From a bacterium (GTDB taxonomy: Bacteria > Electryoneota > Electryoneia > Electryoneales > Electryoneaceae): a stretch of DNA of 64,000 nucleotides. Below are positions 11,838 to 40,439 of this stretch, one piece after another (positions within the stretch are counted from its first letter, which is position 1; the number at the start of each line of letters is the position of its first letter). The stretch covers positions 928,001-992,000 of the forward strand of contig OY769902.1 in assembly GCA_963669175.1 (NCBI GenBank). The letters run 5' to 3'. The notes under the pieces were generated by a model. That model made no database searches, had not been told where the DNA came from, and was given only the letters and a program-made list of their open reading frames with translations. The position numbers and the translations under genes were made by a program.

Positions 11838-11944
11838 AGATGTGAGTTGGTTCTTCGCTGTTTCAAATGGATCAGGATATCTATAGTCAACAAGAAAACA
11901 ACGACAGGTTAGATCAGTGATTCTGTACCAGGTTTCGCTAAAGT

Positions 11945-12777
11945 CCACCGAAGGTGGGCTACTTGAATAGCGCGGTGCGTAAGCGCCGGGAATATGGTTG
12001 CCTTCCCCTTTCGATCCCGAAGGGATCGCACAACAATCCGTGATGAAATTCGAAGGAAAATCGGGACTGCTACACAATTTCGCCAGATGGAATTCCAATT
12101 TCTGTTGTTGAGGTTCGAGAGATAATCATGCTCATCCATTTCCGGATAACGTAAAGCGAAATTGGTAGCTGTACCAGGATTTTCCTGGACTAGATAATCA
12201 CTTAGCCCGGATATTTCACGAACGAAACATGGATAATCATCTTAACACATTTCATATCAGCACAATACAACTGATTCATACAGCTTTTTTATGGGTACAG
12301 TTTGCTCCGGTATCCCTTTGCGTGCCTATTCCCTGTTTCGCTGGCAAAATGAGGCTGAGTATCGGCAACCGCCCCGGCAGGGGCAACCTGTATTAGCCCC
12401 GGGCAGCTGCCGTCAGTTTGGCGGCTACCCGGGGAGATAATGCGCACCATATATTTACTCCGGAAGGAGTAACCTATTAATTATCATAAGTATACAGTGA
12501 CAATATTTAGGCAACCCGCTGCCGGGGTTGGCAAGTAGCGTACATCCTATTCCCACCGTGAGCGCCAAACAGACGGCGCTGGACGGTGGGCTAATCCAGG
12601 GAACCACTGCCGTGGTTCTTGCACTGGACATTCCATCAAATACCACATTTGAAATTGCATTGGTGAAATATTCGGGTTAGCCAATATGTGCGTCCCCTTC
12701 AGGGACGATAGATGGTGGAGACACTGATTTTCCGGCGCTTACGCACCGCGCTATTCGGGTGTCACCTCTTCGAGGTG
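11945..12777. repeat. Nested non-autonomous palindromic elements (three-hairpin inverted arms enclosing two further elements)
   Basis: GAATAGCGCGGTGCGTAAGCGCCGG (11965-11989) is the exact reverse complement of 12732-12756. Each copy is flanked by two small hairpins. Inner inverted pairs lie at 12055-12185 and 12371-12618. Confidence 0.8.
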
Positions 12778-17763: not shown

Positions 17764-17850
17764 GGAGAGGTGACAGAGTGGTCGATTGTGCACGCTTGGA
17801 AAGCGTGTGAGCGGGTAACCGTTCCGTGGGTTCGAATCCCACCCTCTCCG
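17764..17850 (+). tRNA. tRNA-Ser(GGA)
   Basis: GGAGAGG/CCTCTCC acceptor stem, anticodon arm CACGC-TTGGAAA-GCGTG, long variable arm, GGTTCGAATCC T-arm; CCA not encoded. Confidence 0.95.
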
Positions 17851-17992: not shown

Positions 17993-18314
17993 TATTGCTG
18001 TTCTCGATTTTATTCCGACATAATAAAGATTGCCGGGAAAAGGGGACGGGATCCTTTTCCTCGCGCGCATATGAAACACTCTCGCCGAACTTGTGGAAAA
18101 GGAAACTGTACCCTTTTCCGTGTACGTCCTGCCTGCTCTCAAGAAAAAGGGTACAGCCACCTTTCCCGGTCCTTGCTCACAGCGGGAAGGCTTTGCCCCA
18201 GGGAAAGGAAACTGTCCCCTTTTTCCATATCCTTATCCTTTATTCCAACCATATGGTTGACCTTTCACTGATCTGGCACATGACCACATGACGGAATAAT
18301 AATGGGAATCGCTA
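17993..18314 (+). repeat. ~320-bp four-box element, family B (copy 1)
   Basis: Four ~25-bp palindromic boxes at 18036, 18095, 18143 and 18201; similar over its whole length to the reverse complement of 45984-46296. Confidence 0.85.
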
Positions 18315-21982: not shown

Positions 21983-22061
21983 AGCCCGAAAAGGCTTGCG
22001 AGACCGTAACCTTCGATCTAAATTACGTGGCTTCAAGCACAACCGAACGTAGAGACTTAAC

Positions 22062-22454
22062 ATGCAGGAAGTACTGTACATCATTTTGCTGGTTCTGCAC
22101 ATCCTGGTATCGATCTTTCTGGTCGTCGCTGTGTTGATGCAGCGCGCCAAGGGTGGCGGACTGGCAGGTATCGCAGGTGGCGCAGCCTCGCAGGCCATGT
22201 TTGGCGGGCGTGGAGCGGCAACCCTGCTGCACAAGGTTACCATTGGACTCGCCATTTCGTTTGGCGTGATCTGCCTTTTGCTGGGTGTGCTGTCCAAGGG
22301 AATGAGTTCCAAGCATTCCGTGGTACAGCAGGAACTGGAAGCCAACCCGTTGCAGGAAATGCTGGGCACTGCCCCGTCCGCAACCACGGCTCCCGTTGAA
22401 GCGCCTATAGCAGCTCCGGCGGCTGATCCGATGGATGCAGCGACCCAGGAGTAA
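22062..22454 (+). CDS. secG: Preprotein translocase subunit SecG
   Basis: VLMQRAKGGGL motif between two TM helices; canonical tpiA-secG-tRNA-Leu order. Confidence 0.92.
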   Translation: MQEVLYIILLVLHILVSIFLVVAVLMQRAKGGGLAGIAGGAASQAMFGGRGAATLLHKVTIGLAISFGVICLLLGVLSKGMSSKHSVVQQELEANPLQEMLGTAPSATTAPVEAPIAAPAADPMDAATQE

Positions 22455-22517
22455 GTAATACCGTTTGAGTGTTGCACCGGGTTGTTTCATCCGAGAGAAC
22501 CCGGGTTGACATAGGTT

Positions 22518-22604
22518 GCCGGAGTGGTGGAATTGGCAGACACGCTGTGTTGAGGGCGCAGTGTCCTACTGGACGTGCCGGTTCGAGTCCGGCCTCCGGC
22601 ACCA
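22518..22604 (+). tRNA. tRNA-Leu(GAG)
   Basis: GCCGGAG/CTCCGGC-ACCA, anticodon loop TTGAGGG, variable arm, GGTTCGAGTCC. Confidence 0.95.
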
Positions 22605-22612
22605 TTTTTTTT

Positions 22613-22801
22613 CAAAAACAGGGACTGACCCAAGGGGTCTGTCCCTGTTTTTGTCTCATCAAGTGAAAAAAGCAGGCAGTGAAAAAAGTGAAAAAGGTAG
22701 CCCGGCCATGCCTGGCCGGGAGTTTGAAAGTTGACAAGTTAGAAAGTTCTAAAGTTGTTGAGCGAAAACCGGGACTAACCCATCGCACTCTGTCCAGTTT
22801 T
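22613..22801. repeat. Repeat cluster: GGGACTGACCC palindromes, GTGAAAAAA array, GTAG-REP, AAAGTT array
   Basis: Palindrome 22613-22653 (relatives at 15702-15740 and 22765-22801); GTAG-CCCGGCCATGCCTGGCCGGG at 22697-22720; AAAGTT array 22721-22756, also at 25069-25104. Confidence 0.75.
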
Positions 22802-22830
22802 CAGAAATGTTCTAACACCATAATATCAGT

Positions 22831-22990
22831 ACGTTTGGCCCGACTCCTCGCGAAGGCGGGGATCTCCTGTCGGGATGCTGAAGGGATTGGTGTTATAGTA
22901 GTATTGAAATACCCTTGTTGGCGTGGTTTTTTCGTTTGCTGTATCTCAGCGGGCGCAGAAACCCGACAACAAGCAGTCGGGCCACGCGCC
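22831..22990. repeat. REP doublet (REPIN-like), copy 1
   Basis: Inverted REPs TTGGCCCGAC...GTCGGG and CCCGAC...GTCGGGCCAC; 122 bp (22869-22990) matches 25145-25266 with 2 mismatches. Confidence 0.88.
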
Positions 22991-23033
22991 CTGGATATAA
23001 GGGTTTAATTCGATGGAAAAGGGGAATTGCTGG

Positions 23034-23281
23034 CGGAAAATGGGGACTGCCACACTTTTCGTCTGCGAATATGCCAGATATTGTTGACCATGTTTCATTT
23101 ATACGCAAAATCATTAATCGCTGGGAAGATATGTTGCGAAAAGGTGGCTGTCCCAGCATTTTCCGGTCCGGAACCATCTTACAGAACAGGCAAAAAATTT
23201 GGTACAGTTACCTTTTCAGCAATACTGATGTGATTGTTCTGCATTCGAGAGCATGAAAAGGTAACAGTCCCATTTTTTGCC
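23034..23281. repeat. Four-box twin-hairpin element, family A (copy 1)
   Basis: Boxes at 23034, 23137, 23189 and 23255; box1:box2 and box3:box4 are inverted repeats; the same boxes and spacing occur at 40049-40293. Confidence 0.85.
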
Positions 23282-23412
23282 TGCTTGCCCATTCAAAATA
23301 GCGAGGAACCGTATTCTTTCATCCTTACCATCCTGTCAATCCTGTAAATTCTTCCAGAAAGCCTCTATCCTGTTTATCCGCCCGGGTGCAAGCACGCCGG
23401 GCCACGCGGCTT

Positions 23413-25032
23413 TTACCGTACGAGCATCAGGCGTTTCACATATGCCGTTTGCTCCGTTGTAATCCTCAGGAAATAGACACCGCTTGCCAGGAATGAGCTC
23501 TCAGGTGATGATCCATTCCACTCAAACTGCACCCTTGTTGGATGTTCCGGAAAGGAACGGTCGTACACAGTTCTGCCAAGAATGTCGGAAATGGTAATCG
23601 ATTGGACCGGCTCACCCTTTAGCGAGATCCGAACCTCAGCATTGAACGGGTTGGGATACAGATCGATAGCAAGCTGTTCCGGCAGAGCAGTCGTTGTTTC
23701 ACCCGGTGTAACCTGGTGCGGACTGACGCCGAGATAACCGTCGGCCGTGATCCGTCCCAGGATGGAAGCGCCATAGCCCACACCGGTCGCGAAGATCGCA
23801 CCGCCCCGTCCATCACTGCAGGCATGTGTGTCGAACAGGTGATATCCCGGATCATGTTCGAACATATCCAGGTCTTCCCTGATCAGGTTGCCGCAGGAAT
23901 CATAGACAGACGCAGTAAACCGTAAGCCCAGTTCACCGTATTCGCGGATATTGAAGCGTACCAGTGAACCGTTGTCCGTAGCAAATGGCAGATCACAGCT
24001 ACCGTCCAGAATATCGAGGATTTCTACCACGTTTTGGCTGGCCGTAATCCGGTAGTAGTAGTCGTAGAAATACCTGTATTGCAGCCAGTAAGCGTTGCCG
24101 TTGGGTTCCGGTGCCGTTTCCACCCAGGTGTATCGGTTCAGGTTGTTGAAATGGTATGTCGGCGGTTCCCAGACATACTCCAAGTCCGGATCGAGGAGCA
24201 TGGCATCCCATTCGCTGAAAAGAAACAGGTCGCCATCGCATGTGGTAGAGGCTGCTTCAAGATAGGATAAGCCGGTGATTTCGGGTAACGCTGAATCAGG
24301 ATAGACGGCTCCGTCTTCAAGGATATGTTGTACTGAAACGGCTGTTGATTCATCATCAAACTCAAGGTTCTGCAACTGATATAAACCACCGTTATGATCA
24401 GTAAAAACTGTATGTACACCATGTAAGTAATCGCTAATATTATAATAATAAGGATAAGGCATTAAGATATCACCTTGATTAGAGAATTTTATTATTCCTC
24501 TCATAATATCATTGTTATAATTCCAAAAAGTGAACCAGAATCCATCCGTTGTATCGGCGAAGAAATGGCCGATACCAAAGTAATCCGGGATAGCTATTCC
24601 GTCATCACCCCAAAGTTGTTGGCCGTTCACATCAATTTTCTTCAGACGATCTGAATACCAGACATCATCTTCCCATATTCCTATTCTATACACAAGACTG
24701 TGATCGGATAATGTTATCGAACTACCATACATTGATGGGATGGAATCGCCAACCCACATGTTGGCGCGTACGGGGCCATCGGGAAAGGTCATGTTGCCAT
24801 TGGCATCAAAATGCAATATCCAATGGCTGTTAACCTGGAATGCAGAAGAGGTGATCAGGTAAGCGCCACCCAGACCATCAGCGTGCAAATCCGTAACAGA
24901 TGAAAGCTGAAAGTTAATGAAATAAGGATCTTCAGGATCTGTATACCATTCGGCAGAGAGAGAACAGGGCAGGCTAAGGGCCAGTATCAATAGCAGCCTT
25001 TTCGACCAATCGGATATGCCAAAGTGTATCAC
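23413..25032 (-). CDS. Secreted protein with T9SS-type C-terminal domain (beta-propeller-like 'DG.GG' repeats)
   Basis: GTG start after GGAGG; signal peptide; ADGLGGAY, TDHNGGLY and SDGRGGAI repeats; YPNPFN...ASGVYFLRI C-terminus. Confidence 0.8.
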   Translation of the reverse strand: MIHFGISDWSKRLLLILALSLPCSLSAEWYTDPEDPYFINFQLSSVTDLHADGLGGAYLITSSAFQVNSHWILHFDANGNMTFPDGPVRANMWVGDSIPSMYGSSITLSDHSLVYRIGIWEDDVWYSDRLKKIDVNGQQLWGDDGIAIPDYFGIGHFFADTTDGFWFTFWNYNNDIMRGIIKFSNQGDILMPYPYYYNISDYLHGVHTVFTDHNGGLYQLQNLEFDDESTAVSVQHILEDGAVYPDSALPEITGLSYLEAASTTCDGDLFLFSEWDAMLLDPDLEYVWEPPTYHFNNLNRYTWVETAPEPNGNAYWLQYRYFYDYYYRITASQNVVEILDILDGSCDLPFATDNGSLVRFNIREYGELGLRFTASVYDSCGNLIREDLDMFEHDPGYHLFDTHACSDGRGGAIFATGVGYGASILGRITADGYLGVSPHQVTPGETTTALPEQLAIDLYPNPFNAEVRISLKGEPVQSITISDILGRTVYDRSFPEHPTRVQFEWNGSSPESSFLASGVYFLRITTEQTAYVKRLMLVR

Positions 25033-25068
25033 ATTTCCTCCTGTATGGGGCAATCATTCACTTTTGTA

Positions 25069-25443
25069 AGTTTGAAAGTTGACAAGGTAGAAAGTTTAAA
25101 AGTTATCTTATCAAATTATCACACGTTTGGCCCGACTGCTTGCAGTCGGGATGCTGAAGAGATTGGTGTTATAGTAGTATTGAAATACCCTTGTTGGCGT
25201 GGTTTTTTCGTTTGCTGTATCTCAGCGGGCGCAGAAACCCGACAGCAAGCAGTCGGGCCACGCGCCGAAAGCCTTTATCCTGTAAGTCTGCCCGGGTGCA
25301 AGCACACCGGGCCACGCGGTCTGCTTACCCATTCAAAATAGAGAGGAACCGTATACCTTAATTCTTATCATCCTTACCATCCTGTCTATCCTGTACATTA
25401 TTCCCTCAAGCCTTCATCCTTGCTATCCTATCATCCTGTGAGT
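25069..25443. repeat. Repeat cluster: AAAGTT array, REP doublet copy 2, REP and AGGAT arrays
   Basis: Direct-repeat matches to 22721-22756, 22831-22990, 23357-23409 and 23281-23346. Confidence 0.88.
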
Positions 25444-28400
25444 CTAGTGAGTCTTGTGAGCCAAAAAGAGCTGGTGGAATTCTGAGGCGGCTTTCCGGTA
25501 AAAAGTCCAGTCAGCTTCAGTGACAGCGATACTCTTCCGTACCCCCGGCGACAGAAAGACCAGTTCTGCCTGTGCCTGTGTGGTTTGCCAGGCGGACATC
25601 AGAGCCAGCGCGTACAGTCGTGCCTGGTGATCGTAGCCATGTTCATGTATCCGCTGGTCCAGCGAATTGGCATCCCAACGATTTGTTTTATAATCGAGTA
25701 GATAGGCTGTGCCATCCTGCAACCAGGCCAGGTCAGCACGTCCGGTCAGGGTCAACGGCCCCAGCTCAAACCGTATCCCAACCTCACGTTTCGCCTGCAA
25801 GGGGATCGTGTGCAGACCGAGCGAGCGTCCGTGTTCAAATAGAGCCTTCACCCACGATTCAATTGACGAAACCTGATTCTTTCCGACCAATAAATCCAGC
25901 GTGGAATGGACCTCGCTACGCGCCTGTTCCCAGGAACAGCCCGGTCCGAAACGTTGGTACAGGCGGTGAACCAGCGAGCCGATCTCCGAAGCCGTCTCAC
26001 GTGGGAATTGTTGGGACACCAATCCATCATCCGGGAAGACTTCGTGATCGTCGGAAGCGTCTTCATTGTCGCCGTCTTCAAACAGTTTATGGATGCTCGC
26101 TTTCCCCGGAGCTGCAAGGTATGCCCCGAATGCGGTCACACTCAGAACCAGCTTGTCCGGCGGTTCCGGGGAGGCAAGCCGAACCTGCGGATCTTCTATC
26201 GGTTCGGTTGGAAGTTGCCAGTTTTTCTCGAGATCGACAGCCTGCAAAGTGTTGCCTGACAAAGACGACGTATCCATAGCTTCTGCGCTGATCAGGGTCA
26301 GTTTGATACGGTCATCCGGTGGATCAAGGAAGGTTTCGTTTTCTGATTCCACCTGTAACGCGTCCAGCCATTTGGGCAGGGACCCGCAACGTCCGGCGGA
26401 CAGGGAACCGTCTTTCTTAAAGGTGGCCCGGCTGACCAGGAGCAGACGATCTCGCGCACGGGTAGCCGCCACATACATCAGTCGTTTCTCTTCCGCTTCA
26501 GCTTCAGCAGGGGAGAAGACTTCACGCATCCACCAGTGCAGAGGACGCTCCGGCCTGGACTCATCGGCCACATCCAGCATGCCCAGGTCATACAACGCCG
26601 GGTTGCCCAGTTCACGATACGGCCCGGAAGGTATCATCAGGTTGCCGCCACGCTTGTTGCTGCCTGATTTCATGCCGCCGGTCAGGTCTGCCAGCACGAC
26701 ATAGGGAAATTCCAGTCCCTTGGATTTGTGATAGGTCAGGATACGGATACCGTGTCCTTCGCTCAGGTCCGCCTGGCCGCTGACCTCATCGCCACCGCTT
26801 TCGAACAGCTCGACTAGCGCATGTCCTACTTGCCGCACTGATAATGCGCCCTGTCCGGCCAGCCCACGTATGATATCCAACAACTTGAAAACATTTGCTA
26901 CACGTTGCTCTCCCTCAATCCCGGACGCATACGCCGCCAGAGCGCCACTCCGGGTCAGAGCGTACAACAGCAGGTCCGCCGGGGCAATACTATCTTTCCG
27001 GTCCTCAAGCTCCCGCCATAAGGCCAATCCCTGTCTCAGTTTGGAGACAGCCTCTTCACTCAGAACTTCAGGCGGCCAGTCTGGGGGAATCTTGCCCTCG
27101 GCGAGGGTTTGCCAGGCTTGGAGAGGTTCTTCATTCAGAAGGTGAAAAAGGCTGACGATGGTGTCCGGGAAATTAAAAAACGGTTCTCGCCATACCCCGG
27201 TCCAGGCGACACGGTCACGTTGATCACCCAACGCCAGCAACAGGTTCAGTTGATCGAGCACTTCCTGACGTTGCGCAAAACCACCTTCCCCTTCGGGGCG
27301 AGGATGCAAACCAGCAGCTCGCAATGCATCCGCGATGGTGGTCAAACGCCCCCGTGTACGCAACAGGATGATGATGTCATCCTCTTCCAGGGGACGCAGG
27401 CCATTTTCACCAACCACCTGAACCGTTCCGATTTCAGCCTTCAAACGGGTTGCCAGTTGCTGATACAGGACTTCGTCCGATAAACACGGCGCCAGCATTA
27501 ACTCACAAAGTGGCCCTCCCGGCGCATCTGTCGTGGAGCGCATCGGAGACAGCGGCTGTGGGATCGCTTCAAAAGGTAATGGCTTGCTATGCGGGGGCTG
27601 AAGCAGACGATCGAACACCGGATTCAGGGTGTCAACCAACGGCGGCAGGGTACGGAAATTGTCGTTCAGGTTGACAAAACGTCCGGTTCGCTGGGCCGCT
27701 TCACGGTCTACCGTGCCGCACATCTTCTGCATGGCGAGCTGAACCACGGTAACATTGGCTTCACGGAACCCGTAAATTGATTGTTTTTCATCTCCGACCA
27801 GGAATAGGCGGTCCGGATCGAAGTTGCCATTCTGGTCAAGGGTAAGAAGCTGGAAGATTTCCCACTGAATGGTGGACGTATCCTGAAATTCATCGATCAG
27901 AAGAGTTCGCATGGACCGTCTGATTCGCTTCGCCACCTCGGGTTGTGTGGATAGCAGACGCAGTGTCAGTTGCTCGAGATCATCGCTGGACAGTTCCGTA
28001 TCCGGTGCAGCGCCCCCGGAAACCAGCGGCAGCGCAACATGGGCGAGGGCTTGGAGATGATGGATATACTCACCGTGTGTACCCGGGGTGGCTTCCGGCG
28101 CTTTTTTTGTCGTTCCGGTTTTCATCGTTTCCGGCCAGTCGGCAACCAGCATTCCCAGGTTTGAATCCAACTCCTGCTTTGCCGCATCCGGATTATCCAG
28201 CATTCGCTTCAAGGCTTCCTGCAAGCCACGGTTGGAAATGACGTATAGCACCAGGTTTTCGATGGCGTCACGGCTGCCCAGCGCGTTAAGCAGGATTTCA
28301 AGATCAGCATTCCGTTGATAGCCAAGCCGACGTATATGTTCGTGAACCTGGGTGAAGCGTGCAGGGTTGCCCTGATCTTTCACTGAAAAACCCGGATCAA

Positions 28401-28758
28401 CCCCAGCTTCGAATGGATACGCCCGAAGCAGACTGCCGCAGAAGCTGTGTATAGTGCTGATACGCGCCCAGGGCATCCGTTCACGCCGTTCCCGCCAGAA
28501 GTCACGTCCCGGCGCCTGATCCATCGCTTCACGTTTCAGCAGTGTTTTATAGACTTTTGATTTGAGCTGAGCGGCAGCTTTACGTGTGAACGTGACAGCA
28601 ACAACCTGATCCGGGAAGTATTCCAACTGATCCAGCAGTCGCATGTAGCGTTCGACCAGAACGGTTGTTTTTCCCGATCCGGCTCCGGCCAGCACCAGCT
28701 TCCCACGTGTCAGATCCAACGCATCCGTCTGTCTTGGCGTGTAGCGTATCTCGCTCAT
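25444..28758 (-). CDS. addA: ATP-dependent helicase/nuclease AddA (UvrD/RecB-like)
   Basis: AGAGSGKT, TFTRKAA, STIHSF, IDEFQDT, VGDEKQSIYGFR, TYHKSKGLEF, YVAATRA; C-terminal nuclease GRADL..LDYKT..Q..Y. Confidence 0.9.
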   Translation of the reverse strand: MSEIRYTPRQTDALDLTRGKLVLAGAGSGKTTVLVERYMRLLDQLEYFPDQVVAVTFTRKAAAQLKSKVYKTLLKREAMDQAPGRDFWRERRERMPWARISTIHSFCGSLLRAYPFEAGVDPGFSVKDQGNPARFTQVHEHIRRLGYQRNADLEILLNALGSRDAIENLVLYVISNRGLQEALKRMLDNPDAAKQELDSNLGMLVADWPETMKTGTTKKAPEATPGTHGEYIHHLQALAHVALPLVSGGAAPDTELSSDDLEQLTLRLLSTQPEVAKRIRRSMRTLLIDEFQDTSTIQWEIFQLLTLDQNGNFDPDRLFLVGDEKQSIYGFREANVTVVQLAMQKMCGTVDREAAQRTGRFVNLNDNFRTLPPLVDTLNPVFDRLLQPPHSKPLPFEAIPQPLSPMRSTTDAPGGPLCELMLAPCLSDEVLYQQLATRLKAEIGTVQVVGENGLRPLEEDDIIILLRTRGRLTTIADALRAAGLHPRPEGEGGFAQRQEVLDQLNLLLALGDQRDRVAWTGVWREPFFNFPDTIVSLFHLLNEEPLQAWQTLAEGKIPPDWPPEVLSEEAVSKLRQGLALWRELEDRKDSIAPADLLLYALTRSGALAAYASGIEGEQRVANVFKLLDIIRGLAGQGALSVRQVGHALVELFESGGDEVSGQADLSEGHGIRILTYHKSKGLEFPYVVLADLTGGMKSGSNKRGGNLMIPSGPYRELGNPALYDLGMLDVADESRPERPLHWWMREVFSPAEAEAEEKRLMYVAATRARDRLLLVSRATFKKDGSLSAGRCGSLPKWLDALQVESENETFLDPPDDRIKLTLISAEAMDTSSLSGNTLQAVDLEKNWQLPTEPIEDPQVRLASPEPPDKLVLSVTAFGAYLAAPGKASIHKLFEDGDNEDASDDHEVFPDDGLVSQQFPRETASEIGSLVHRLYQRFGPGCSWEQARSEVHSTLDLLVGKNQVSSIESWVKALFEHGRSLGLHTIPLQAKREVGIRFELGPLTLTGRADLAWLQDGTAYLLDYKTNRWDANSLDQRIHEHGYDHQARLYALALMSAWQTTQAQAELVFLSPGVRKSIAVTEADWTFYRKAASEFHQLFLAHKTH

Positions 28759-31700
28759 GGCTGTTCCTCCAGTGAAGCGAAGCGCTGGCCTTCAAGGATA
28801 TAGACTCCGTTTAAGTAGTCTTTCTTCAGGTGTTCCTGACGCATGGCAAACAGGTTGTGGTCCTTTCGGCAGACATGTTTGTAAGGGCAGAAGTTGAATT
28901 CTCCCGCGCTGCACAGGTCATTGTTCTGATCGAGCGGATGATGAAACCGTCCCGCCTGGATTGCGCCCTGAATCGCGAGCACATTGGCGATCAGGCTGTC
29001 CCTGAAGGCCATATGCTCATCCTTGGTCCATTTCCCGGTTTCACCGACAGAACCATCTCTTGGCCGGATTTGATAAAATGCGCCCCGTTCCGTTTCCCTG
29101 CCGTAACTTTCATGGTCCTGCAGGTAGCGAAGCAGCACTTCAAGGTATATGGGCAACTGGAAGCTTATGCCTCGTCTTACCGCGCCGCCGGTTTTCTGCG
29201 GGGCATTGGAAACCTTGTAGTCCCAGATACGCCAGCCGGATTTCGGGTGCAGGGAGACACGGTCGATCCGCCCCTGCACAGTGGCGTGCCTTTCGCCGTC
29301 CGAGCATTCCAAAGGCTGATCCAGCAGGATTTCGCCGTCAAAATCCGGTTGCGGTTCACCGAACAGTGCTTCCGTGAAAACGATACGTTCCCCGCTGATC
29401 CCCTTGGACATTTCCTTGTTCACCACCAGGCGCAGGATGCCCGGGGGATCATCTTTATTGCTCAAACCGCTCAGGATGGCGCGCAGCTTGTTATCCCAGA
29501 ACAGGTTGTCGTAGGGAAGGTCCGCAGTCATTTCGTTCGTGATCTCATGCATGATACGCGCGGTTTCTGCGTGGAATTCACCGAAGGAACGCGACAGACC
29601 ATCCTCCGCTTTCATCCGTTTGGCGGTTTCGGCGAGGATATCATGCACAAGCGTTCCCAGCCCGGTTTCATCGGCTTCATCTTCCACTTCTTCCAGCGGG
29701 TCGATATGCAGGATATTGCCGAACAGGAAGCGCATCGGGCAGGCTGCGTAAGCGTCCAATCGCGTGACAGAGAAAGGATTCGAAAGGATACGTCGCGCCA
29801 GCAGGTCGCCTGCCGGACTGTTTTCCAGCAAACCGTTGAACTCGGACAGGATGCGTGGATCATCACGGAGGCGGTCTACATACACGCGGTCAACTGTTCC
29901 ATGCGCCCATTCAAGGGATGTATCCGATTCAGGAAGCCAGGTACGAGCTGCAGAAAGACGTCTCAGGCCACGTTCCCGCAAGTCATCCTTTCCCAGGTCT
30001 TCACCTATAGCGGTCAGCGTATTGGTGATGGAATAGAATACGTCCGGCGCAGGTGTGGAGACGAATTGAATACCGGTAGCTTGAAGATCACGGATAAGCG
30101 GTGAAGGAGTGGTGTCGCCTTCATCCGTATCCGGACAGGGAGCGCTGAAAACAAGGTGCTCAGCGGCATACAGCGCTTCCCAGGTCAACGCCCTGCTTTC
30201 CGCCAGCCGATTGACCTTATCTCCCCAAACCGGCGCAAAAGGATCAAGCGGATCGGTTACCGGGTTGCGTGGCCAGAGATCATCCGACATTCCCAGGAAA
30301 AAGAGATACTTTACGCGCAGCCCTCGCACTTCCAGCGGCCCGGTTACCGGGATACCGCCACGAGTCCGGTTGTCGGGACGCAAGCGTTGTTGTCTTGCGG
30401 CAAAGGCGAACTGTTCCGCAAAGCGTGAAACCGGCCAGCTTTTCTGCCCGGACAGGTATAGTGTTTCCTTAACACGCTCCAGTGTGAGCCAGACAAATTT
30501 CAGTGCGGCGTTTTCGTTTCCGGTGTTGCCATTTTCGCGGTGTTCCCAGGCGTTGACCCCAAGCTGGGCCAGCAGATCCTTGATCCAATCTGTCGCAGTG
30601 TCGGCGTCACAGGGATCAGGCAACGCTTCAAGCATACCGCCCAACTCCTCCAGTTCCGGCAGGATACGTTGCAGGCGATCTCGCTTGCGCAGAATGGCCA
30701 TTCGCCGATGTTCCGATTGAGTGTCTTGAGCGGATTTCGCCAGCCACACGATCTGGTCTGTGAGGGGTTCCAGCCAGGTTTCACAGAAAGAGCCGCGAGA
30801 GCCGACAATACGAGCGTCCCGTGCAAAAGAATCCAGCTCCAGCACTGCCGCATTGTCACGAAGCGTTTTACCGAACCGGACACAGGGATTCAGCAGAACA
30901 GCCGTAACCGCTTCACGTGGCCAGCCTTCACTGCGCCCTTCGAAAAGTTGCACCGCCAGTTGGGCGATGGGACTGTCGCTCAACGGCGGCCCGAGACGTA
31001 AATCCGGAGTCAGGCCATAGAGGGGAAAGACAGTTTCGATCAGCGATGCGTATGTGGTCAGGTCGGTTGCAACAACAGCGATATCCTCATCGGGGATTCC
31101 CTCGTCACGCACCAGGTAAGCCAGACGTTTTGCGGTATCCTCCACCTCTTCACGAGCATTACGGTGTGTCTGCCAGCCGATGGGATGTAACCCGGTGCCC
31201 TCGGTTTCGTCATTCTGATCATCGCGCGCAGTTCTTGATCCGACCGCGTTGAACAGGGTATTGACCAACACCGCCTGCGTCTGGTTGATTGAAAAGGCAC
31301 GTACTGTGTGCGATGGATGCTTTTTCCATGTATTCAGTTCATGCGTCATCAGATCCAACGCAGGTCCGGGCGATTCCGTCCAATCCAGCATCACGATAGT
31401 TTTGCCGGAACAGTTGGCCAGCGTATGGATCAGCGAGACAACCTTTTCACGTAATGGCCCGAGACGGTCAATTATCAGCAGGTCGGGAGGTCGAAAGGTA
31501 CTGGTCTGGACTTCTGCTATAGCGGTCAGCGGAAGGATGGTTTCATCCAGAAGCCCGTGTCTATCTAGTGTCTTGTGATATTGTTCCAGCGTTTTGCCGA
31601 TCCAGGGATGCAGACGTTCCAGGCGGTCCAGGATCTGTTCGCCGTCCATGATTCGCTGATGCAGTTCCAGCACACGTTGAATCCAGCCTGATCCTGCTGC

Positions 31701-32024
31701 TTCGCCGCCCAGTTCGGGGATGTCCAGTGTGGCGGTGATCTCTCGTAACAGCAGAACACGCGTGTCCGAATCCAGTGCCTGAGGTTCCAGTCCGGAAGCG
31801 CGCAACATGTAACGTGCGAGTCCACCGGCGGTGATGACATCCACACCCACTACAGGTGATTGGGTATGCTGTAACAGGCCGGATTCTACACGTTCGCCAC
31901 GGCGCATGCTGTCCACGACCCACCATGTAACCCCGCCGTTACGCATCGTTTTCACTGCTTCCTCTGCCGTCGCCGTAAAACGTCCGGAGCCAGGAAGCCC
32001 TGTCCAAAGTGCGATCTCATTCAT
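28755..32024 (-). CDS. addB: AddB-like PD-(D/E)XK nuclease with Fe-S cysteines
   Basis: SVTRLDAYAACPMRF, GTLVHDIL, GRIDRV..WDYK, QLPIY, C-terminal C..C...C; overlaps the addA start. Confidence 0.88.
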   Translation of the reverse strand: MNEIALWTGLPGSGRFTATAEEAVKTMRNGGVTWWVVDSMRRGERVESGLLQHTQSPVVGVDVITAGGLARYMLRASGLEPQALDSDTRVLLLREITATLDIPELGGEAAGSGWIQRVLELHQRIMDGEQILDRLERLHPWIGKTLEQYHKTLDRHGLLDETILPLTAIAEVQTSTFRPPDLLIIDRLGPLREKVVSLIHTLANCSGKTIVMLDWTESPGPALDLMTHELNTWKKHPSHTVRAFSINQTQAVLVNTLFNAVGSRTARDDQNDETEGTGLHPIGWQTHRNAREEVEDTAKRLAYLVRDEGIPDEDIAVVATDLTTYASLIETVFPLYGLTPDLRLGPPLSDSPIAQLAVQLFEGRSEGWPREAVTAVLLNPCVRFGKTLRDNAAVLELDSFARDARIVGSRGSFCETWLEPLTDQIVWLAKSAQDTQSEHRRMAILRKRDRLQRILPELEELGGMLEALPDPCDADTATDWIKDLLAQLGVNAWEHRENGNTGNENAALKFVWLTLERVKETLYLSGQKSWPVSRFAEQFAFAARQQRLRPDNRTRGGIPVTGPLEVRGLRVKYLFFLGMSDDLWPRNPVTDPLDPFAPVWGDKVNRLAESRALTWEALYAAEHLVFSAPCPDTDEGDTTPSPLIRDLQATGIQFVSTPAPDVFYSITNTLTAIGEDLGKDDLRERGLRRLSAARTWLPESDTSLEWAHGTVDRVYVDRLRDDPRILSEFNGLLENSPAGDLLARRILSNPFSVTRLDAYAACPMRFLFGNILHIDPLEEVEDEADETGLGTLVHDILAETAKRMKAEDGLSRSFGEFHAETARIMHEITNEMTADLPYDNLFWDNKLRAILSGLSNKDDPPGILRLVVNKEMSKGISGERIVFTEALFGEPQPDFDGEILLDQPLECSDGERHATVQGRIDRVSLHPKSGWRIWDYKVSNAPQKTGGAVRRGISFQLPIYLEVLLRYLQDHESYGRETERGAFYQIRPRDGSVGETGKWTKDEHMAFRDSLIANVLAIQGAIQAGRFHHPLDQNNDLCSAGEFNFCPYKHVCRKDHNLFAMRQEHLKKDYLNGVYILEGQRFASLEEQP

Positions 32025-32112
32025 GCTCGAAGATACGACAAATCTTACTGGCGTTGAAAACAAAAACCTTTATCTTTCAAGAAACTGGAAGAAGCAACAA
32101 GGAGCGACAGAG

Positions 32113-33123
32113 ATGACACACGGTGATTTTCTGGAACGTCGCAAACGATTAAGCGACCTGGCGAATGGCTACCGTGCTTCGGCGGTGCTGTTTACGGCAA
32201 ATGAACTGGGGTTGTTCAAGGTTTTATCCAATGGCGCCAAGGGGTTGAAAGAACTGGCCATAGAACTGGATGTATCCGAACATGGCCTGCTTTTGTTGTT
32301 GCATGCTCTTGTCGGGTTGGACCTTCTGGCAATGGATAAGGACACTTTTGCCCTGTATGGCGATGCGGAGGAATTCCTGCGTTCTGATTCGCCCTATTTC
32401 TTCGGCGACATGATGCAGCATGGGTACCGCTTGTATCAACGTTGGGAAAGCCTTGGTGAAGCGGTCAAGCTTGGCGCCACTCCATTCAGCAAAGAGGTTC
32501 GAGCCGGTCGTACCAAAGAGGACTGGCGTGCCTTTATCATGGCGATGGATAACAATTCACGCACCTCGGCGGTTCAGACGGCTGATGCACTGGATTTGAC
32601 CGGAGTGAAACGCATTCTGGACCTTGGCGGTGGACCGGGAACCTTCCTGTACACCTTCCTGGAACGTCTGCCGGACGCGACCGGGGCGATACTGGACTTC
32701 GATCATGTACTCGAAATCGCCCAGGAAGTCGTGCAACGGTTCACTGTAGGCGAACGTGTATCCTACATCCCCGGCGATATGTTTAATGCTGATTACCAGG
32801 GACCATACGACCTGATTTTCCTGGGCAATATCATTCACAGCAGCGGCCCAGAACGGTGTCGTGGGCTGGTCCGGCGCTGTACCGATGCGCTCGAAGAGGG
32901 GGGACGTCTGGTTATCAAGGACTTCTTCATGGATGAGACCGCCACACGTCCGGCGGATGGCGCCATGTTCGCGTTGAATATGTTGGTCGGTACGGACAAC
33001 GGCCAATCCTATCGGTGGAAAGATGCTGTGGATTGGATGGAAGAACAGGGGTTGACAATTGTCCAGAAAATCCCGGTGGCATTCCATTCCGGGATACTCG
33101 TGGGTAAAAAATTGTCTTTGTGA
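32113..33123 (+). CDS. Class I SAM-dependent O-methyltransferase (dimerisation domain + Methyltransf_2)
   Basis: ATG after GGAG SD; 'LFTANELGLF' dimerisation domain, LDLGGGPG, GDMF, NIIH. Confidence 0.88.
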   Translation: MTHGDFLERRKRLSDLANGYRASAVLFTANELGLFKVLSNGAKGLKELAIELDVSEHGLLLLLHALVGLDLLAMDKDTFALYGDAEEFLRSDSPYFFGDMMQHGYRLYQRWESLGEAVKLGATPFSKEVRAGRTKEDWRAFIMAMDNNSRTSAVQTADALDLTGVKRILDLGGGPGTFLYTFLERLPDATGAILDFDHVLEIAQEVVQRFTVGERVSYIPGDMFNADYQGPYDLIFLGNIIHSSGPERCRGLVRRCTDALEEGGRLVIKDFFMDETATRPADGAMFALNMLVGTDNGQSYRWKDAVDWMEEQGLTIVQKIPVAFHSGILVGKKLSL

Positions 33124-33159
33124 GTACAAACCATGCAAAGTTTGTAAAGGTGTAGACGT

Positions 33160-33200
33160 AAAAAAAACGATCCGGCATGCCAAGTGTGCCGGATCGTTGT
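33160..33200. terminator. Terminator between convergent genes
   Basis: A-tract followed by AACGATCCGGCAT...GTGCCGGATCGTT hairpin. Confidence 0.7.
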
Positions 33201-33202
33201 GC

Positions 33203-34756
33203 TTACTGGCTTTCCTGTTCCGGAAGAGGCGGCGCCAACTCCAGCGAGATCGGCTCAGTGTCCAGATACTTCTTCTTCCAGACGCGCACATTCCAGTCTG
33301 ATCCGGAGTTTGTAATCGGGATTTTCTTTCCGAATACATTCAGCGTACATGAAAGAATATCCTTCGGGACACCATCCGTGATCTCTTCGTATTCGGTATC
33401 GATTTTTGCGCGCCAGTCAGCGCGTTCTTTGATGTAGGTAATCCCGGAGCTGCTCATATGATGACCGGAAATCAGGTAATCCGGCCAGTATTCAGGTTGA
33501 GTCCAACGGATGCAGTGAAAAATACGGCCATCAGTAATATGGAAGCTGAAGGCAGGATCGCCGCCGATGGATGCATCATCAGGTATCAGCTCATGAACAA
33601 TGGCAACCGATTCTTCGTAGGTAAAATGCTTGTCTGTCCAGGTCAGGGGGACCAAAGCAAAACGGATAACGTAGAATTGAAGAATCATATAGCAGAACAC
33701 AACCCCCGAGAGGATCAGATAGCCGCCGATTCTTGCATATATATGCTTGTATAAATCAAGAAATTGGTAGAAAACAAATGGGGTTGAGATGAGCATGATA
33801 TAATTTAACATACGGTAATCATATAATGGTCTTCCTGTAAAAGGAAGATTATTTACAAAAAATATTAATACAATAGATAATAGTAATGTTGCGTTAATCC
33901 TGGTAGTCATAATATTAAAATCTCTGTTTTTATAAAGTAAATATGCTAATGCTGCTACATTCAAAAGTATTATCAGGGCTATAGGTGCTACAAAAACAGG
34001 GTTTTTAGATAATTCAAGGAAAAAACTGGTTTTATACGTTTGACTGGCAGTATTGCTGAAATTGCCAAATACAGAGGCGTAATTGGGATATAAAATATAG
34101 GCAGTGGAGATAACATTAACGAAAACTGCAATCGCGTAGATTTTGATTATGTCAATAACTGATTTTCTAATTTCACGATTGTTAAGAAAATAATAAAACG
34201 AGAAAATGAAAATGCCAAGAAATCCAGGAATCAGACCAGATGCAAACGATATTCCCAGCAAAATGCTTGGAAGTATAAGCTTATTGTACTTGAGATAAAC
34301 AATGAAGCTCAGGATGAAAAACAAGAATGAGGTTTCTTCCGGGCGCCCGACCGAGAATATAATAAAGGTTGGCGCAAAAAATCCAAAAACCAGCGCCCAA
34401 AAACTTTTTGTGTAATGATAAATGATAACAAACAGAATGATATTGATGATAATGTGAATAGCAAAAGTATATAAAAGAATTGAACTCCAGGAATATCCAA
34501 AAATAGAAAATACAAACGCGTTAAATAGCCGGAAGAAAGAATAATGAATACCGGTTGATGTATCATCAGACCCCATAAACCCCTTTATTGACGGCAATGT
34601 GTAACCATAGCCATTCTGGTGTGCATAGTAAGGTTCAGAGAAAGCAATAAAATCAGCCGTGGGAGTAGGCAACTCGTGAATATACAACCAACTGAAAAGG
34701 GCAATTTTCAGCGCTACCCCAATAGCCAGCAGTGTGTAGAATTTTTTCATCTCCAA
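33203..34756 (-). CDS. Polytopic membrane protein, possibly GT-C fold (ArnT/PMT-like) glycosyltransferase
   Basis: About 11 TM helices, acidic residues in the first loop (ADF..FSEP), 'RPEE' motif, soluble C-terminal domain; AT-rich. Confidence 0.5.
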   Translation of the reverse strand: MEMKKFYTLLAIGVALKIALFSWLYIHELPTPTADFIAFSEPYYAHQNGYGYTLPSIKGFMGSDDTSTGIHYSFFRLFNAFVFSIFGYSWSSILLYTFAIHIIINIILFVIIYHYTKSFWALVFGFFAPTFIIFSVGRPEETSFLFFILSFIVYLKYNKLILPSILLGISFASGLIPGFLGIFIFSFYYFLNNREIRKSVIDIIKIYAIAVFVNVISTAYILYPNYASVFGNFSNTASQTYKTSFFLELSKNPVFVAPIALIILLNVAALAYLLYKNRDFNIMTTRINATLLLSIVLIFFVNNLPFTGRPLYDYRMLNYIMLISTPFVFYQFLDLYKHIYARIGGYLILSGVVFCYMILQFYVIRFALVPLTWTDKHFTYEESVAIVHELIPDDASIGGDPAFSFHITDGRIFHCIRWTQPEYWPDYLISGHHMSSSGITYIKERADWRAKIDTEYEEITDGVPKDILSCTLNVFGKKIPITNSGSDWNVRVWKKKYLDTEPISLELAPPLPEQESQ

Positions 34757-35041
34757 CTCCCTGACTCAGGTTTTCAGAATACACAAACAACGAAATAACT
34801 AGTGGTTAAAATGCGCTGTCCAGCTTCTCTATTAGCAGAACCAACGCCATTTAGAAGATCAATGTGCGGCAAAGTAAGACTGTACCTCGTTGATAGTCAA
34901 CAACATTTGCCTTGAATCGGGTGAATGGTCGGGATCTGAATGTTAAGTAAGTAACACGCCGGGGAGTGATGATAAATTACGGGTCGTTGAAAGGCCCGCG
35001 CCCTTACGTAATACTAATGTGAAGAATTACATTGTATCCCG

Positions 35042-36004
35042 ATGACTTCTGAGACCGGACATAAGGTGAAGAAAATCCTGCTTCGTATCCTGCTGCCGTT
35101 GTTTATGGTGGGGGTAGGCTGGTTGGCGTATGACGCATTGAAGGCGGAACTCGCCCATGAAAGCATTGCCAATATTAAAGAATCGCTCCTTTCCATTGGC
35201 CCTTTGCGGCTCCTGATCGCCACGGGTTTTATGGCGTTATCCTATTGCGTGTTCGGTCTGTATGACGCTTCCGCTCTGAAATTATTCCACGCCGGTCTGT
35301 CAGTGCGAAAGGGATTGCTGGCCGGTTTTCTCGGCGGCACCATCTCCCAGAACACAGGGATGATGGGGCTGGGGGGATACGCGGTACGGGTAAAACTGTA
35401 TACGAACTGGCAACTTCCGGCGAAGATCATGGCGCAGCTCTTTGCCTTCCTGACACTGGCGCAATGGTTGGGGTTACTGGCGTTGTCCGGGGTGATGTTT
35501 CTCCTGTTCCCGGAGAAAATTCCTGCGATGCTGCATTTGCCGTTTAAGGATACCACTCCGCTTGCCTTGATCCTGTTGATTCCTATCCTGCTGTACTTCC
35601 TCATGGCGTTTCTGCTGAAGAAGCCGGTCACGATAGGAAAGAAAACCCTTCAACCTCCACGTAAGACCACACTTTTCACCCAGCTTGTGCTGTCCTGTGC
35701 ATCCCTTGCTGCGGCTGGCATGGTGCAGTGGGCGCTACTTCCGGAAGGGCACGGCATTCATGCGGCGGTGTTCCTGTCCATTTACCTGCTGGCTCAGATC
35801 GGGGGCAAACTTAGCCAGGTGCCTTTCGGGTTGGGAGTGTATGAAGCGGTGATCCTGGTGCTGCTGCCCAACACCTATGATAATGCGGCGATTGTTGGCG
35901 GGATGGTGGCCTATCGTGTGCTGTATAACATGATTCCCCTGCTGATCGCGGTGGTGGTGTGGTTGTTCACGTTGGCGCATGGTGCGGGGATACGAAAGGA
36001 CTGA
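35042..36004 (+). CDS. Lysylphosphatidylglycerol synthase TM / MprF flippase-domain-only protein
   Basis: YD..AL, GG..VR..LY..W, SQVPFGLGVYEAV, AYRVLY..IPL; no GNAT synthase domain. Confidence 0.8.
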   Translation: MTSETGHKVKKILLRILLPLFMVGVGWLAYDALKAELAHESIANIKESLLSIGPLRLLIATGFMALSYCVFGLYDASALKLFHAGLSVRKGLLAGFLGGTISQNTGMMGLGGYAVRVKLYTNWQLPAKIMAQLFAFLTLAQWLGLLALSGVMFLLFPEKIPAMLHLPFKDTTPLALILLIPILLYFLMAFLLKKPVTIGKKTLQPPRKTTLFTQLVLSCASLAAAGMVQWALLPEGHGIHAAVFLSIYLLAQIGGKLSQVPFGLGVYEAVILVLLPNTYDNAAIVGGMVAYRVLYNMIPLLIAVVVWLFTLAHGAGIRKD

Positions 36005-36304
36005 CTCTCAAGTTAAGCCGTTTGGCCCGACTGCTTGCTGTCGGGTTTCTTACCTCCCGTACCGAGGGCGGTCCAGGCTACGTGATGCTGATTCTCTTCT
36101 CGATGCTGAATACATCGTAAAGAACACTACTGAAGGACTGACTCTCCAGTTAGAATAGACCCCGCCGGGCAGTCGCTTCCGCTTCGCTACAGCGTACTTC
36201 AAGCCGGCGGGGCCAAAACCTGCTGAGACGTACTTCAAGCCGGCGGGGCCAAAGTCTGCTACACCTTTTTTACCTTTTTTACTTTCTTTACGTTTTTTAC
36301 CTTC
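35996..36304. repeat. REPs with short local duplications and a reversed GTAAAAAA array
   Basis: REP at 36022-36045; 20-bp duplication 35996-36015/36133-36152; 25-bp duplication 36193-36217/36229-36253; TTTTTTAC repeats at 36262-36304. Confidence 0.75.
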
Positions 36305-36348
36305 AATCCTCCTTTGCCTTCGTTACATGAATTGATTAAACTTGCGCC

Positions 36349-37830
36349 ATGTCGCAGGAGCAGTCGAAAAAGAGAGTCCAGCTTCCCGATTCCCCGGAAG
36401 CGTTGATCGAGCTGATCGGTGAAATCGCCCGTGAACAGCAGCTTGAGGTCTATGCGGTAGGCGGCTATATCCGTGATCGTTTGCTGGGTTTGCCGTTCTC
36501 CGGGGAGATCGATTTGTCGGTTGTGGGGGACGGGCCCGCGTTTGCCCGCAGCCTGGCGAAACGCTGGGGGATCCGGAGCGGAGTTCAGATCTACCGTCGT
36601 TTTGGCACCGCACGTTTGCAGGCGGGCTCCATCATCCTCGAGTTCGCCACCAGCCGACGTGAGTCCTATTCTCCCGATTCACGTAACCCCGATGTAGAAC
36701 CGGCGCCCTTCAGCGAGGATCTGGCGCGACGTGATTTTACCGTGAACGCGCTGGCAGTTGATGTCAGCGATCCGTCACGCATTATCGACCATTTCGAAGG
36801 CTTGGCGGACCTGGACGCTCGTCTGTTGCGAACCCCGCTCGCCCCGATCAAGACCTTCAGCGATGACCCCCTGCGGATTTTGCGAGCCATCCGTTTCGCG
36901 CACAGGCTGGATTTCCGTATCGCCGAAGAGACCTGGGAAGCGATCAGGAGCGAACGGCACCGGCTGGAAATCGTAGCTCGTAGCCGGATCAACGACGAAT
37001 TCTTTAAGATTCTCGTCCACAAGCCGCCCAGCCGTGGCATGCTACTCTTGAATAACAGCGGCGTGATGGAGGTGTTGTTCCCTGAAATCGCCGCGCTGGC
37101 CGGGGTGGATCAGGTCGGCAAGCATCATCACAAAGATGTTCTACTGCACACCTTCATCGTGATGGACCACCTGTCCGAAGTGACTGATGATCCACGCCTG
37201 CTGTTCGCCGCGCTGCTGCATGATATCGGCAAGCCACGCACCAAACGGTTCGAACCGGAACAGGGCTGGACCTTCCACGGGCACGAGCATGTCGGCGAAC
37301 GCTTGGTCAAAAAGATGGGCAAGAAATACGAATGGCCCGACGACCTGACCGAACGGACCTCAAAGCTGGTACGCCTGCACATGCGTCCCATCAACCTCAC
37401 CGGCGATGAGGTGACTGACAGCGGGGTGCGACGCCTGATCGTGCAGGCCGGAGACGATATCGACGACCTGCTGAAATTGTGCCGTGCCGATATCACCTCC
37501 GCTAACCCGCGCAAGGTGAAACGCTACCTGCATGAGTTCGATACCATGCTGGCCCACATGGAACGTGTCGAGGCGAAAGATGAACTGCGCCGTTTCCAAA
37601 GCCCGATCCGTGGCGATGAAATCATGGAACGTACCGGTCTGCCCGAAGGCCCGCGTGTCGGCCTGATCAAAGCCCTGATCGAAGAGGATATCCTCGATGG
37701 CCGCATCCCCTTCACCCGTGAAGGAGCGGACAGTGTGTTCGATGAAAAAGTCCAGGCTACCGCCGATATGCCCGAAAGAGATATGATCCGGCAGTTGAAG
37801 GCTATTATGATGAAGAGGAATGAGGGGTGA
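36349..37830 (+). CDS. cca: CCA-adding tRNA nucleotidyltransferase with HD domain
   Basis: VGGYIRD, EIDL, DLARRDFTVNALA, DDPLRILRAIRF, LLHDIGKP, HGHE. Confidence 0.88.
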   Translation: MSQEQSKKRVQLPDSPEALIELIGEIAREQQLEVYAVGGYIRDRLLGLPFSGEIDLSVVGDGPAFARSLAKRWGIRSGVQIYRRFGTARLQAGSIILEFATSRRESYSPDSRNPDVEPAPFSEDLARRDFTVNALAVDVSDPSRIIDHFEGLADLDARLLRTPLAPIKTFSDDPLRILRAIRFAHRLDFRIAEETWEAIRSERHRLEIVARSRINDEFFKILVHKPPSRGMLLLNNSGVMEVLFPEIAALAGVDQVGKHHHKDVLLHTFIVMDHLSEVTDDPRLLFAALLHDIGKPRTKRFEPEQGWTFHGHEHVGERLVKKMGKKYEWPDDLTERTSKLVRLHMRPINLTGDEVTDSGVRRLIVQAGDDIDDLLKLCRADITSANPRKVKRYLHEFDTMLAHMERVEAKDELRRFQSPIRGDEIMERTGLPEGPRVGLIKALIEEDILDGRIPFTREGADSVFDEKVQATADMPERDMIRQLKAIMMKRNEG

Positions 37831-37929
37831 AGCGATTAAAGATATTTTTGTGTGTTATTTAGCTTGATTATGAGTTGGAAACATATAAATTTAACTTTAG
37901 AGATGGTTTATTCAACATTGGGGAGGAAC

Positions 37930-38673: not shown

Positions 38674-38682
38674 TGTTATTGG

Positions 38683-39845: not shown

Positions 39846-40048
39846 GAAAAATGCCCCCTATCCATAGTAGAAAAGTACGGTTCTATTCTTTGGTTACGCA
39901 AGCTCAGGAACAAACCTGCTTCCATTATTAACCCTGTTGTGACTGCTTGGGTTTCTTCGAAATGCAGCGCTGATTCCTGGGGAATTGTCCCTGAAGATAT
40001 CTTTATGGTTCCTCGCTATTTCGTTTGGGTACACAAACTGAATCCGCA

Positions 40049-40293: not shown

Positions 40294-40439
40294 CGCCTCC
40301 ATACACGAAACAGCGAGGAGCCACCTCTACAAACCAAGCCGCCTATCGAACGGACCTCATCCAAATTGCATAACATAAAAACCGGGACCACCACAAAGGC
40401 AATCCCGGTTGAAAAGCAGACAATCCGTATGTTCGCCCC

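Follow-up and report, generated by a model that had tools for sequence, protein, structure and literature searches.

Family A, a probable REPIN/BIME-type repeat of paired imperfect hairpins with a cognate RAYT in an Electryoneaceae genome

The window analysed here, a stretch of 64,000 nucleotides at positions 928001-992000 of a single 5.45-Mb contig (50% G+C), contains members of a repeat family, denoted family A, which is probably a non-coding selfish repeat of the REPIN/BIME type with a cognate REP-associated tyrosine transposase (RAYT). The family is marked by its anatomy, copy number and intergenic location, by covariation of its stems, by a RAYT gene adjoining its copies and, among the genomes searched, by restriction to one genus. 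The enzyme that binds, cuts and moves the hairpins would be the RAYT encoded at genome positions 3618158-3618820.

The first window copy (copy 1) comprises four boxes that can be read directly in the sequence of the + strand, at 23034-23062 (box 1), 23136-23165 (box 2), 23187-23218 (box 3) and 23254-23283 (box 4). All four are versions of a single oriented motif, GGKACWGYYAC(N)CTTTTC, arranged in the order +, -, +, -, and box 1 pairs with box 2, whereas box 3 pairs with box 4. Hairpin 1 (23034-23165, + strand) consists of box 1, a loop of ~73 nt and box 2, and hairpin 2 (23187-23283, + strand) of boxes 3 and 4 around a 35-nt loop; both were delineated from the sequence, folding as single-stranded DNA (ssDNA) and counts of pairs and mismatches, and the spacer between them (23166-23186, + strand) from the sequence and alignment. 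A 2-nt bulge on the 3' arm divides hairpin 1 into an outer stem of 9 bp and an inner stem of 19 bp, the latter with a T·T mismatch (23048/23149) and a bulged base (23054). In hairpin 2, the outer and inner stems measure 12 and 16 bp, respectively, the 2-nt bulge between them is on the 5' arm, and the inner stem contains two mismatches, T·C (23203/23269) and A·A (23206/23266). Seen from the bottom strand, hairpin 2 repeats the design of hairpin 1, so that the full family A element consists of two head-to-head units.

The initial annotation described four boxes, their recurrence at 40049-40293 with nearly the same spacing and a half element at 12055-12185, and all of these could be located as described on reading the sequence, the half element being hairpin 1 alone. 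Relative to the first core, the core positions are 0/101/158/218 for copy 1, 0/104/158 for copy 2 and 0/102 for the half copy. The boxes were correctly delimited, but the outer terminal inverted repeats (TIRs) of a MITE shell had been missed. In copy 1, which belongs to the alpha lineage, the hairpins are preceded by the left internal segment of the alpha element (22990-23033, + strand), conserved in seven other aligned alpha copies, and followed by the right TIR, CTTGCCCATTCAAAATAGCGAGGAACC (23284-23310, - strand; genome 951296-951310). The left TIR is missing upstream of 22990-23033 in an alignment of eight alpha copies with 150-nt flanks, the expected left end of the element being occupied by another, more abundant palindromic repeat, CCCGACAACAAGCAGTCGGGCC (22962-22985, no strand assigned). 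Copy 2 (40007-40322, + strand), a complete 316-bp member of the beta lineage delineated from the sequence, a TIR search and flank comparison, is made up of a left TIR starting at 40007, hairpin 1 (40049-40181), hairpin 2 (40204-40293) and a right TIR that ends at 40322; the 8-mers on either side of this copy agree at only five of eight positions. The hairpin-1-only copy (12055-12185, + strand; genome 940045-940198) has the inner stem AATTTCGC/GCGAAATT, and its box 2, a GGTAGCTGTACC variant, introduces an additional G·A mismatch. A TIR-like 15-mer, GGTTCTTCGCTGTTT, is located 190 nt upstream of this copy (11849-11863, + strand; genome 939849), and no partner was found for it. Another TIR-like 15-mer is present at 25336-25350.

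Genome-wide, the 11-nt core GGKACWGYYWC occurs 718 times and forms 173 clusters of 2-6 with a few fixed layouts; the repetition is far beyond chance. The four-box family A is one of these cluster layouts, and two three-box families, with layouts 0/48/106 and 0/61/141, have the same core. Three-box relatives with the GGKACWG core are found in the window at 18102-18220, 46073-46190 and 54622-54775, and number dozens across the genome. A profile built from 54 copies yielded 281 non-overlapping matches in the genome, and the whole-genome search with it recovered 58 full copies of family A, 19 copies with hairpin 1 only and 19 with hairpin 2 only; several of these 'halves' are full elements interrupted by insertions. 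The copies are dispersed one by one and form no cassette arrays. According to a crude ORF map, coding sequence covers on average 14% of the 96 pieces, compared to 87% for the genome, and more than half of the length in only 13 of them. Searches with the family A element of phage and plasmid collections returned no match.

Other repeats are also present in this genome. The 16-mers of highest abundance in the genome (up to 105 copies) derive from another palindromic repeat, CCCGACAGCAAGCAGTCGGGCCA, which includes the one at window positions 22962-22985 and is found on both flanks of its own Y1 gene (genome 2242304-2242858). Short-read contigs from four runs across window positions 22000-41000 break at each repeat, and their 'joints' are cross-matches from other copies or organisms (for instance, a TIR pair with 31 other letters); neither an empty site nor an excision is readable in these contigs. 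At 25190-25430 and 36016-36216, the contigs break and the summed depth rises five- to ten-fold, pointing to further repeats.

The ssDNA folds of both strands consist of exactly two tandem hairpins, with energies of -53.6 and -54.3 kcal/mol (z = -6.5 and -7.4 versus shuffles). In an alignment of all 58 full genomic copies (A1), 90.7% of the cells are paired in this tandem structure. Changes on both sides of a pair were found in 25 of the 56 pairs, amounting to 154 cells versus 60.3±6.5 in shuffles, none of 500 of which reached the observed value, whereas slid controls gave 15-50 such cells. A nested pairing (box 1 with box 4 and box 2 with box 3) is nearly as complete (88.3%) because the boxes are alike, but includes only 16 both-sided cells versus 19.5±3.2 in shuffles, a value attained in 452 of 500. 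It is the tandem model, not the nested one, that covariation supports, and the co-variation of the stems that had been proposed from the window copies holds in the full alignment. The RNAalifold consensus on A1, a short-range pairing of box 2 with box 3 at -8.8 kcal/mol, is without covariation and was rejected. Given that the copies are related and the changes are subfamily markers, the cells are not independent and overstate the number of events; counting distinct states, we estimate about seven separate compensated changes. The distinct states include CC:GG, CT:AG and TT:AA for hairpin 1, and TT:AA, TC:GA and CT:AG for hairpin 2; the outer stem has either G:C or C:G at its foot depending on the copy, and a one-base insertion affects both arms of hairpin 1 together. 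Retention of the central mismatches, likewise part of the initial proposal, is evident across the 58 full copies (T·T in 57, T·C in 52 and A·A in 52), and the 2-nt bulges are constant in position but variable in letters. The idea that a single-stranded fold is under selection, together with its constant mismatches and bulges, is accordingly supported, with templated maintenance as an alternative.

The loops had been described as showing no visible similarity, and this is correct for the two full window copies: their loops 1 are 57% identical, which is the level of shuffled sequences (54±4%), and the copies belong to different subfamilies (copy 1 to alpha and copy 2 to beta). Genome-wide, the description does not hold. 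The copy 1 loop has eight partners with at least 70% identity (98.6% for the best), and the copy 2 loop has nine (78% for the best). At 70% identity, the loop 1 sequences form three clusters, with 17, 16 and 5 members, and 20 remain single. Loop lengths are narrowly distributed, with 66-75 nt for loop 1 and 35 nt for loop 2 in 42 of the 58 copies. The loops are therefore inherited and drift; they are not free inserts, and the assumption of a free, unrelated loop is not supported.

RAYTs are domesticated relatives of the IS200/IS605 TnpA, and the IS200-like logic suggested for the hairpins indeed proved to be the nearest one; the gene bracketed by family A copies is a RAYT. A scan with PF01797 identified 10 Y1 genes in the genome, among which the one at 3618158-3618820 (minus strand, 220-aa ORF) is alone in having family A cores within 1.5 kb. 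There are four such cores on each side, with full copies located 42 and 20 nt from the ORF ends, both in + orientation, that is, direct and not inverted. The 220-aa protein scores 82.3 bits against the NCBIfam model NF047646 'REP-associated tyrosine transposase' (cut-off 80) and 23.1 bits against the IS200 model. It also matches E. coli TnpA-REP (PDB 4ER8, reportedly from Messing 2012) with E=1.8e-6, the HUH motif and the Tyr being in register. The motifs NHIH, WQ and YVENNP are intact; by motif comparison alone, the third differs by V for I from YIxNNP, which, with NH[IFV]H and WQ, characterizes subclass 2.4 of Quentin (2018; PMC6006769). The gene is single-copy, and the next genomic match is a paralogue with 46% identity, flanked by a different, 44-copy repeat; a GGGACAG core is common to the two repeats.

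We further used a flanking 16-mer test that follows Bertels (2017; PMC5581495). The 16-mers flanking the RAYT gene at 3618158-3618820 have 53 and 39 genomic copies. Seven of the 10 Y1 genes have 16-mers of at least 20 copies on both flanks, each from a different family, compared to 31 of 600 random genes; the genome is repeat-dense, with 5% of random genes having high-copy 16-mers on both flanks. Six further Y1 genes (genome 5013752, 5361186, 1503039, 1916479, 5087366 and 4081897) have their own 16-mer on both flanks, in 16-75 copies. This pattern suggests many parallel RAYT-repeat systems in one genome. Several observations fit the assignment less well, among them the direct orientation of the two RAYT-flanking copies, the density of repeats in this genome and the lack of family A cores beside the two RAYT homologues inspected in a same-genus genome. 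The canonical 5' GT[AG]G guide tetranucleotide, expected at the foot of the hairpin, can be recognized on the 3' arm of hairpin 1 in ~50 of the 58 copies, but column pair counts place it inside the stem, and it would reach the foot of a hairpin only in the box 2:box 3 pairing, which lacks covariation support. In addition, the full copies show no replichore strand bias (16:15 and 15:12); a bias might be expected if movement were lagging-strand-dependent, and its absence counts against the RAYT reading.

The shell around some copies brings in a second class of transposition. In an alignment with flanks, the similarity of the eight alpha copies extends ~95 nt to the left and 27 nt to the right of the hairpins, and the ends of this shell are inverted repeats of ~27 bp (GGTKCCTCGCTRTTT...) bordered by 8-bp direct repeats (TSDs), resulting in an alpha-lineage MITE of 366 bp. 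The TIRs begin with GG and measure ~22-27 bp in the alpha lineage and window copy 2. We identified 14 genomic TIR pairs, 148-510 bp apart, six of which enclose family A and eight other cargo, and the TSDs match at no fewer than seven of eight positions in 10 of the 14. The combination of TIRs and 8-bp TSDs implies spread by a cut-and-paste (DDE-type) transposase, although this genome yielded no such enzyme. In one lineage, including window copy 1, the hairpin pair is cargo inside a MITE, and the near-identical alpha copies, the only recent spread that is readable from sequence, bear the marks of a different enzyme class.

Carried further, these observations would make family A merely the internal part of a MITE moved by a DDE transposase only, with the hairpins as passengers and the adjacency to the RAYT gene due to coincidental insertion. 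We consider this unlikely, even though four of the six TIR pairs that hold family A have TSDs matching at seven or more of eight positions and the alpha loops, up to 98.6% identical, mark the clearest recent spread. Only six of the 58 full copies are located between two TIRs and ~6 more have one, whereas the others, both RAYT-flanking copies among them, lack TIRs, as does the consensus of 17 beta copies. Furthermore, the eight other TIR pairs enclose unrelated cargo, and hairpin units also occur singly (19 + 19). With the queries used, no autonomous element with these TIRs was found in this genome; all that came up was a decayed ISL3 fragment and an IS3-type insertion sequence. The former, the single PF01610 match, was rejected as an autonomous partner because it has no TIR; ISL3-type elements have GG-ends and 8-bp duplications. 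The latter candidate, a 1.6-kb TIR-like pair holding IS3-type OrfA/OrfB (L101 189-1835; genome 4471588-4473234), was set aside, as IS3-type elements are not known to produce 8-bp duplications, and the locus may be an IS nested in a MITE.

A host function, either an RNA role (bidirectional terminator, mRNA stabiliser or sRNA) or service as sites for DNA-bending or topology proteins, is rather improbable. Family A pieces are enriched between convergent genes (29 of 96 versus 603 of 3769 intergenic gaps, on the crude ORF map), short T runs follow both hairpins, and E. coli REPs are reported to have such roles (PMC6006769). However, the element belongs to no Rfam family, eukaryotic miRNA precursors being hit only by chance, with 16-23 bits against cut-offs of 50-245; no terminator-like site was found in 22800-23500; and the orientation relative to co-directional neighbour genes is unbiased (16 same, 20 opposite). 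Moreover, a host function would leave the RAYT bracket unexplained. The sole Rfam match in the window is a tRNA gene at 17764-17850.

The initial annotation likened the hairpins to integron attC sites, the core-site consensus of which is RYYYAAC...GTTRRRY. Although the elements resemble sites for an integron-type tyrosine recombinase in being imperfect hairpins whose extrahelical positions are fixed and whose centres vary, the consensus is present in none of the 58 copies, no integron integrase passes the cut-off (79.4 bits for the best versus 265) and the copies are scattered singly instead of forming cassette arrays, so that the analogy fails and this origin is extremely improbable. Equally remote is the notion that the hairpins are targets (NTS/SRM hairpins) of an Ssn-type GIY-YIG single-strand nuclease: the genome contains 126 SRM-like motif matches, and the repeat-gene-repeat build is common to the RAYT and Ssn systems, but the SRM pattern published in PMC11893778 occurs in none of the 58 family A copies, and the bracketed gene encodes a Y1 transposase, not a GIY-YIG protein.

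Among the genomes searched, family A appears to be confined to a single genus. This genome contains 53 matches to the hairpin-1 pattern and a same-genus (sister) genome 24, whereas 29 further genomes from the family and phylum contain none, and the exact hairpin-2 pattern was found in only one other assembly among 185,579 species genomes, in 37 stretches. The same-genus copies have the same four-box build, bulges and length (110-113 nt) but other loops, and add a compensated stem variant, CCGC/GCGG. On one sister-genome contig (C10; L085 254-790), two family A copies are arranged head to tail with a 276-nt period, and such tandem pairs are also found on three other contigs. In this genome, which is 92% complete and in 390 contigs, no family A adjoins a RAYT at the two homologues inspected. 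One RAYT homologue (C44:4249-4808; 49-51% identity) is split into two overlapping pieces in different frames, and is either frameshifted or interrupted. A search of the same-genus genome for the gene next to copy 1 returned nothing. By contrast, an orthologue of one neighbour of copy 2 is present (65% identity), with a hairpin-2-only unit downstream, whereas the other neighbour is on a different contig; the hairpin-2-only unit at the orthologous site would be compatible with either ancient presence or re-insertion. The window also encodes a 700-aa protein (40440-42542, - strand), the last ~95 residues of which match the C-termini of ~140 sister-genome open frames and look like a shared C-terminal sorting or secretion domain.

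Under the REPIN-RAYT reading that we favour, each unit consists of two ~28-nt boxes in inverted orientation, which would form a long imperfect hairpin in single-stranded DNA, with the fixed mismatches and 2-nt bulges most likely serving as recognition marks for the RAYT, an HUH-Y1 enzyme. The single-copy RAYT at 3618158-3618820 is the presumed enzyme that nicks and re-joins the ssDNA, spreading the units. A copy would be propagated or retained only while both arms pair, which would explain why the stems co-vary, and the loops would be left to drift, with mainly their length being kept. In one lineage, the sequence shows a second route, in which the hairpin pair is MITE cargo, implying spread by a DDE-type mechanism. 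That a REPIN-type doublet was captured in a TIR/TSD MITE, and that family A has spread both by HUH-Y1 single-strand transposition and by DDE cut-and-paste, is a conceivable but tentative scenario, somewhat short of an even chance. If true, the genome would be naturally suited to tests of how RAYT paralogues and their hairpins co-diverge, given the two 46%-identical RAYTs with repeats having the GGGACAG core and at least seven separate RAYT-repeat pairs.

Most REPIN-RAYT systems have been described in Proteobacteria, and family A provides a well-resolved case outside this group. A conspicuous structured repeat is thereby explained as a known kind of selfish DNA, and annotating it as a gene for an RNA, as a regulatory site or as attC would be unwarranted. 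The covariation of the stems, the fixed mismatches and the paired RAYT paralogues could guide tests of how such enzymes read hairpins, and the TIR-shelled copies show that the repeat modules of this genome are reshuffled into mosaics. Such mosaic repeats matter for assembly, as short-read contigs break at each copy, and for the reading of intergenic regions. A limited search of the literature under the lineage names returned only ecology and taxonomy, and we make no claim that such repeats are unpublished.

The initial annotation considered that the sequence matches neither attC sites nor IS200 ends. However, the features that it listed, namely, conserved arms, a length-constrained spacer and compensatory changes, are stated for REPINs by Bertels & Rainey (2011; PMC3116915), who describe the arms as conserved, the length of the spacer and its capacity to form a hairpin as what counts, and compensatory changes as frequent. 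Like the GI-GIII REPINs of the REPIN-RAYT system of Pseudomonas fluorescens SBW25, family A consists of inverted doublets of short boxes that form an ssDNA hairpin, with a less conserved spacer of maintained length and common compensatory changes; in both cases, the repeats are extragenic, number tens to hundreds of copies, flank a single-copy RAYT and are inherited in a lineage-restricted manner (PMC3116915). The differences are the longer arms (28 bp), the bulge and the fixed mismatches of family A, the spacing of arm starts (~101-104 nt compared to 71 bp in the SBW25 GI family; PMC3116915), the usual fusion of two units head-to-head into a four-box element, the TIR/TSD shells of some copies and the uncultured host lineage, for which the closest named record to one protein is a 'Ca. 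Electryonea' MAG.

The REP/BIME repeats of E. coli resemble family A in forming mosaic clusters of REP units that alternate in orientation and are joined by specific linkers (PMC6006769). The cognate enzymes belong to the same HUH-Y1 fold family (E=1.8e-6 to 4ER8), and GT[AG]G/C[TC]AC tetranucleotides are part of the conserved core in both. Yet the E. coli REP is a local palindrome of 20-40 nt with a 5' GTAG at its foot, whereas in family A a distance of 60-100 nt separates the pairing partners and GT[AG]G falls within the stem. The motifs of the family A RAYT (NHIH, WQ and YVENNP) resemble those of subclass 2.4, not those of the E. coli subclass 2.2 (DHLH, WE and YIHYNP; PMC6006769).

With MITEs, the alpha lineage and window copy 2 share TIRs, and the TIR pairs share sizes of 148-510 bp, TSDs in most cases and the lack of coding capacity, but no autonomous partner was found, and the cargo is variable, with a REPIN-like hairpin doublet in six of the 14 TIR pairs. 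The ends of IS200/IS605 elements (IS608 LE/RE) are similar in having imperfect subterminal ssDNA hairpins that are recognized by a Y1 HUH enzyme and in which mismatched or extrahelical bases matter; however, IS608-type hairpins are only ~20-25 nt long and belong to a multi-copy element with its own tnpA, whereas the hairpins of family A are scattered on their own and the gene is present only once. Integron attC sites share the folded single strand, the conserved extrahelical positions and the variable centres, but family A has neither core sites nor IntI nor cassette arrays, and its loops are inherited within subfamilies. Overall, family A adds to the known REPIN-RAYT class an ordinary, though neatly built, repeat family, with the capture of the hairpin pair in a TIR/TSD shell as its one less usual feature.
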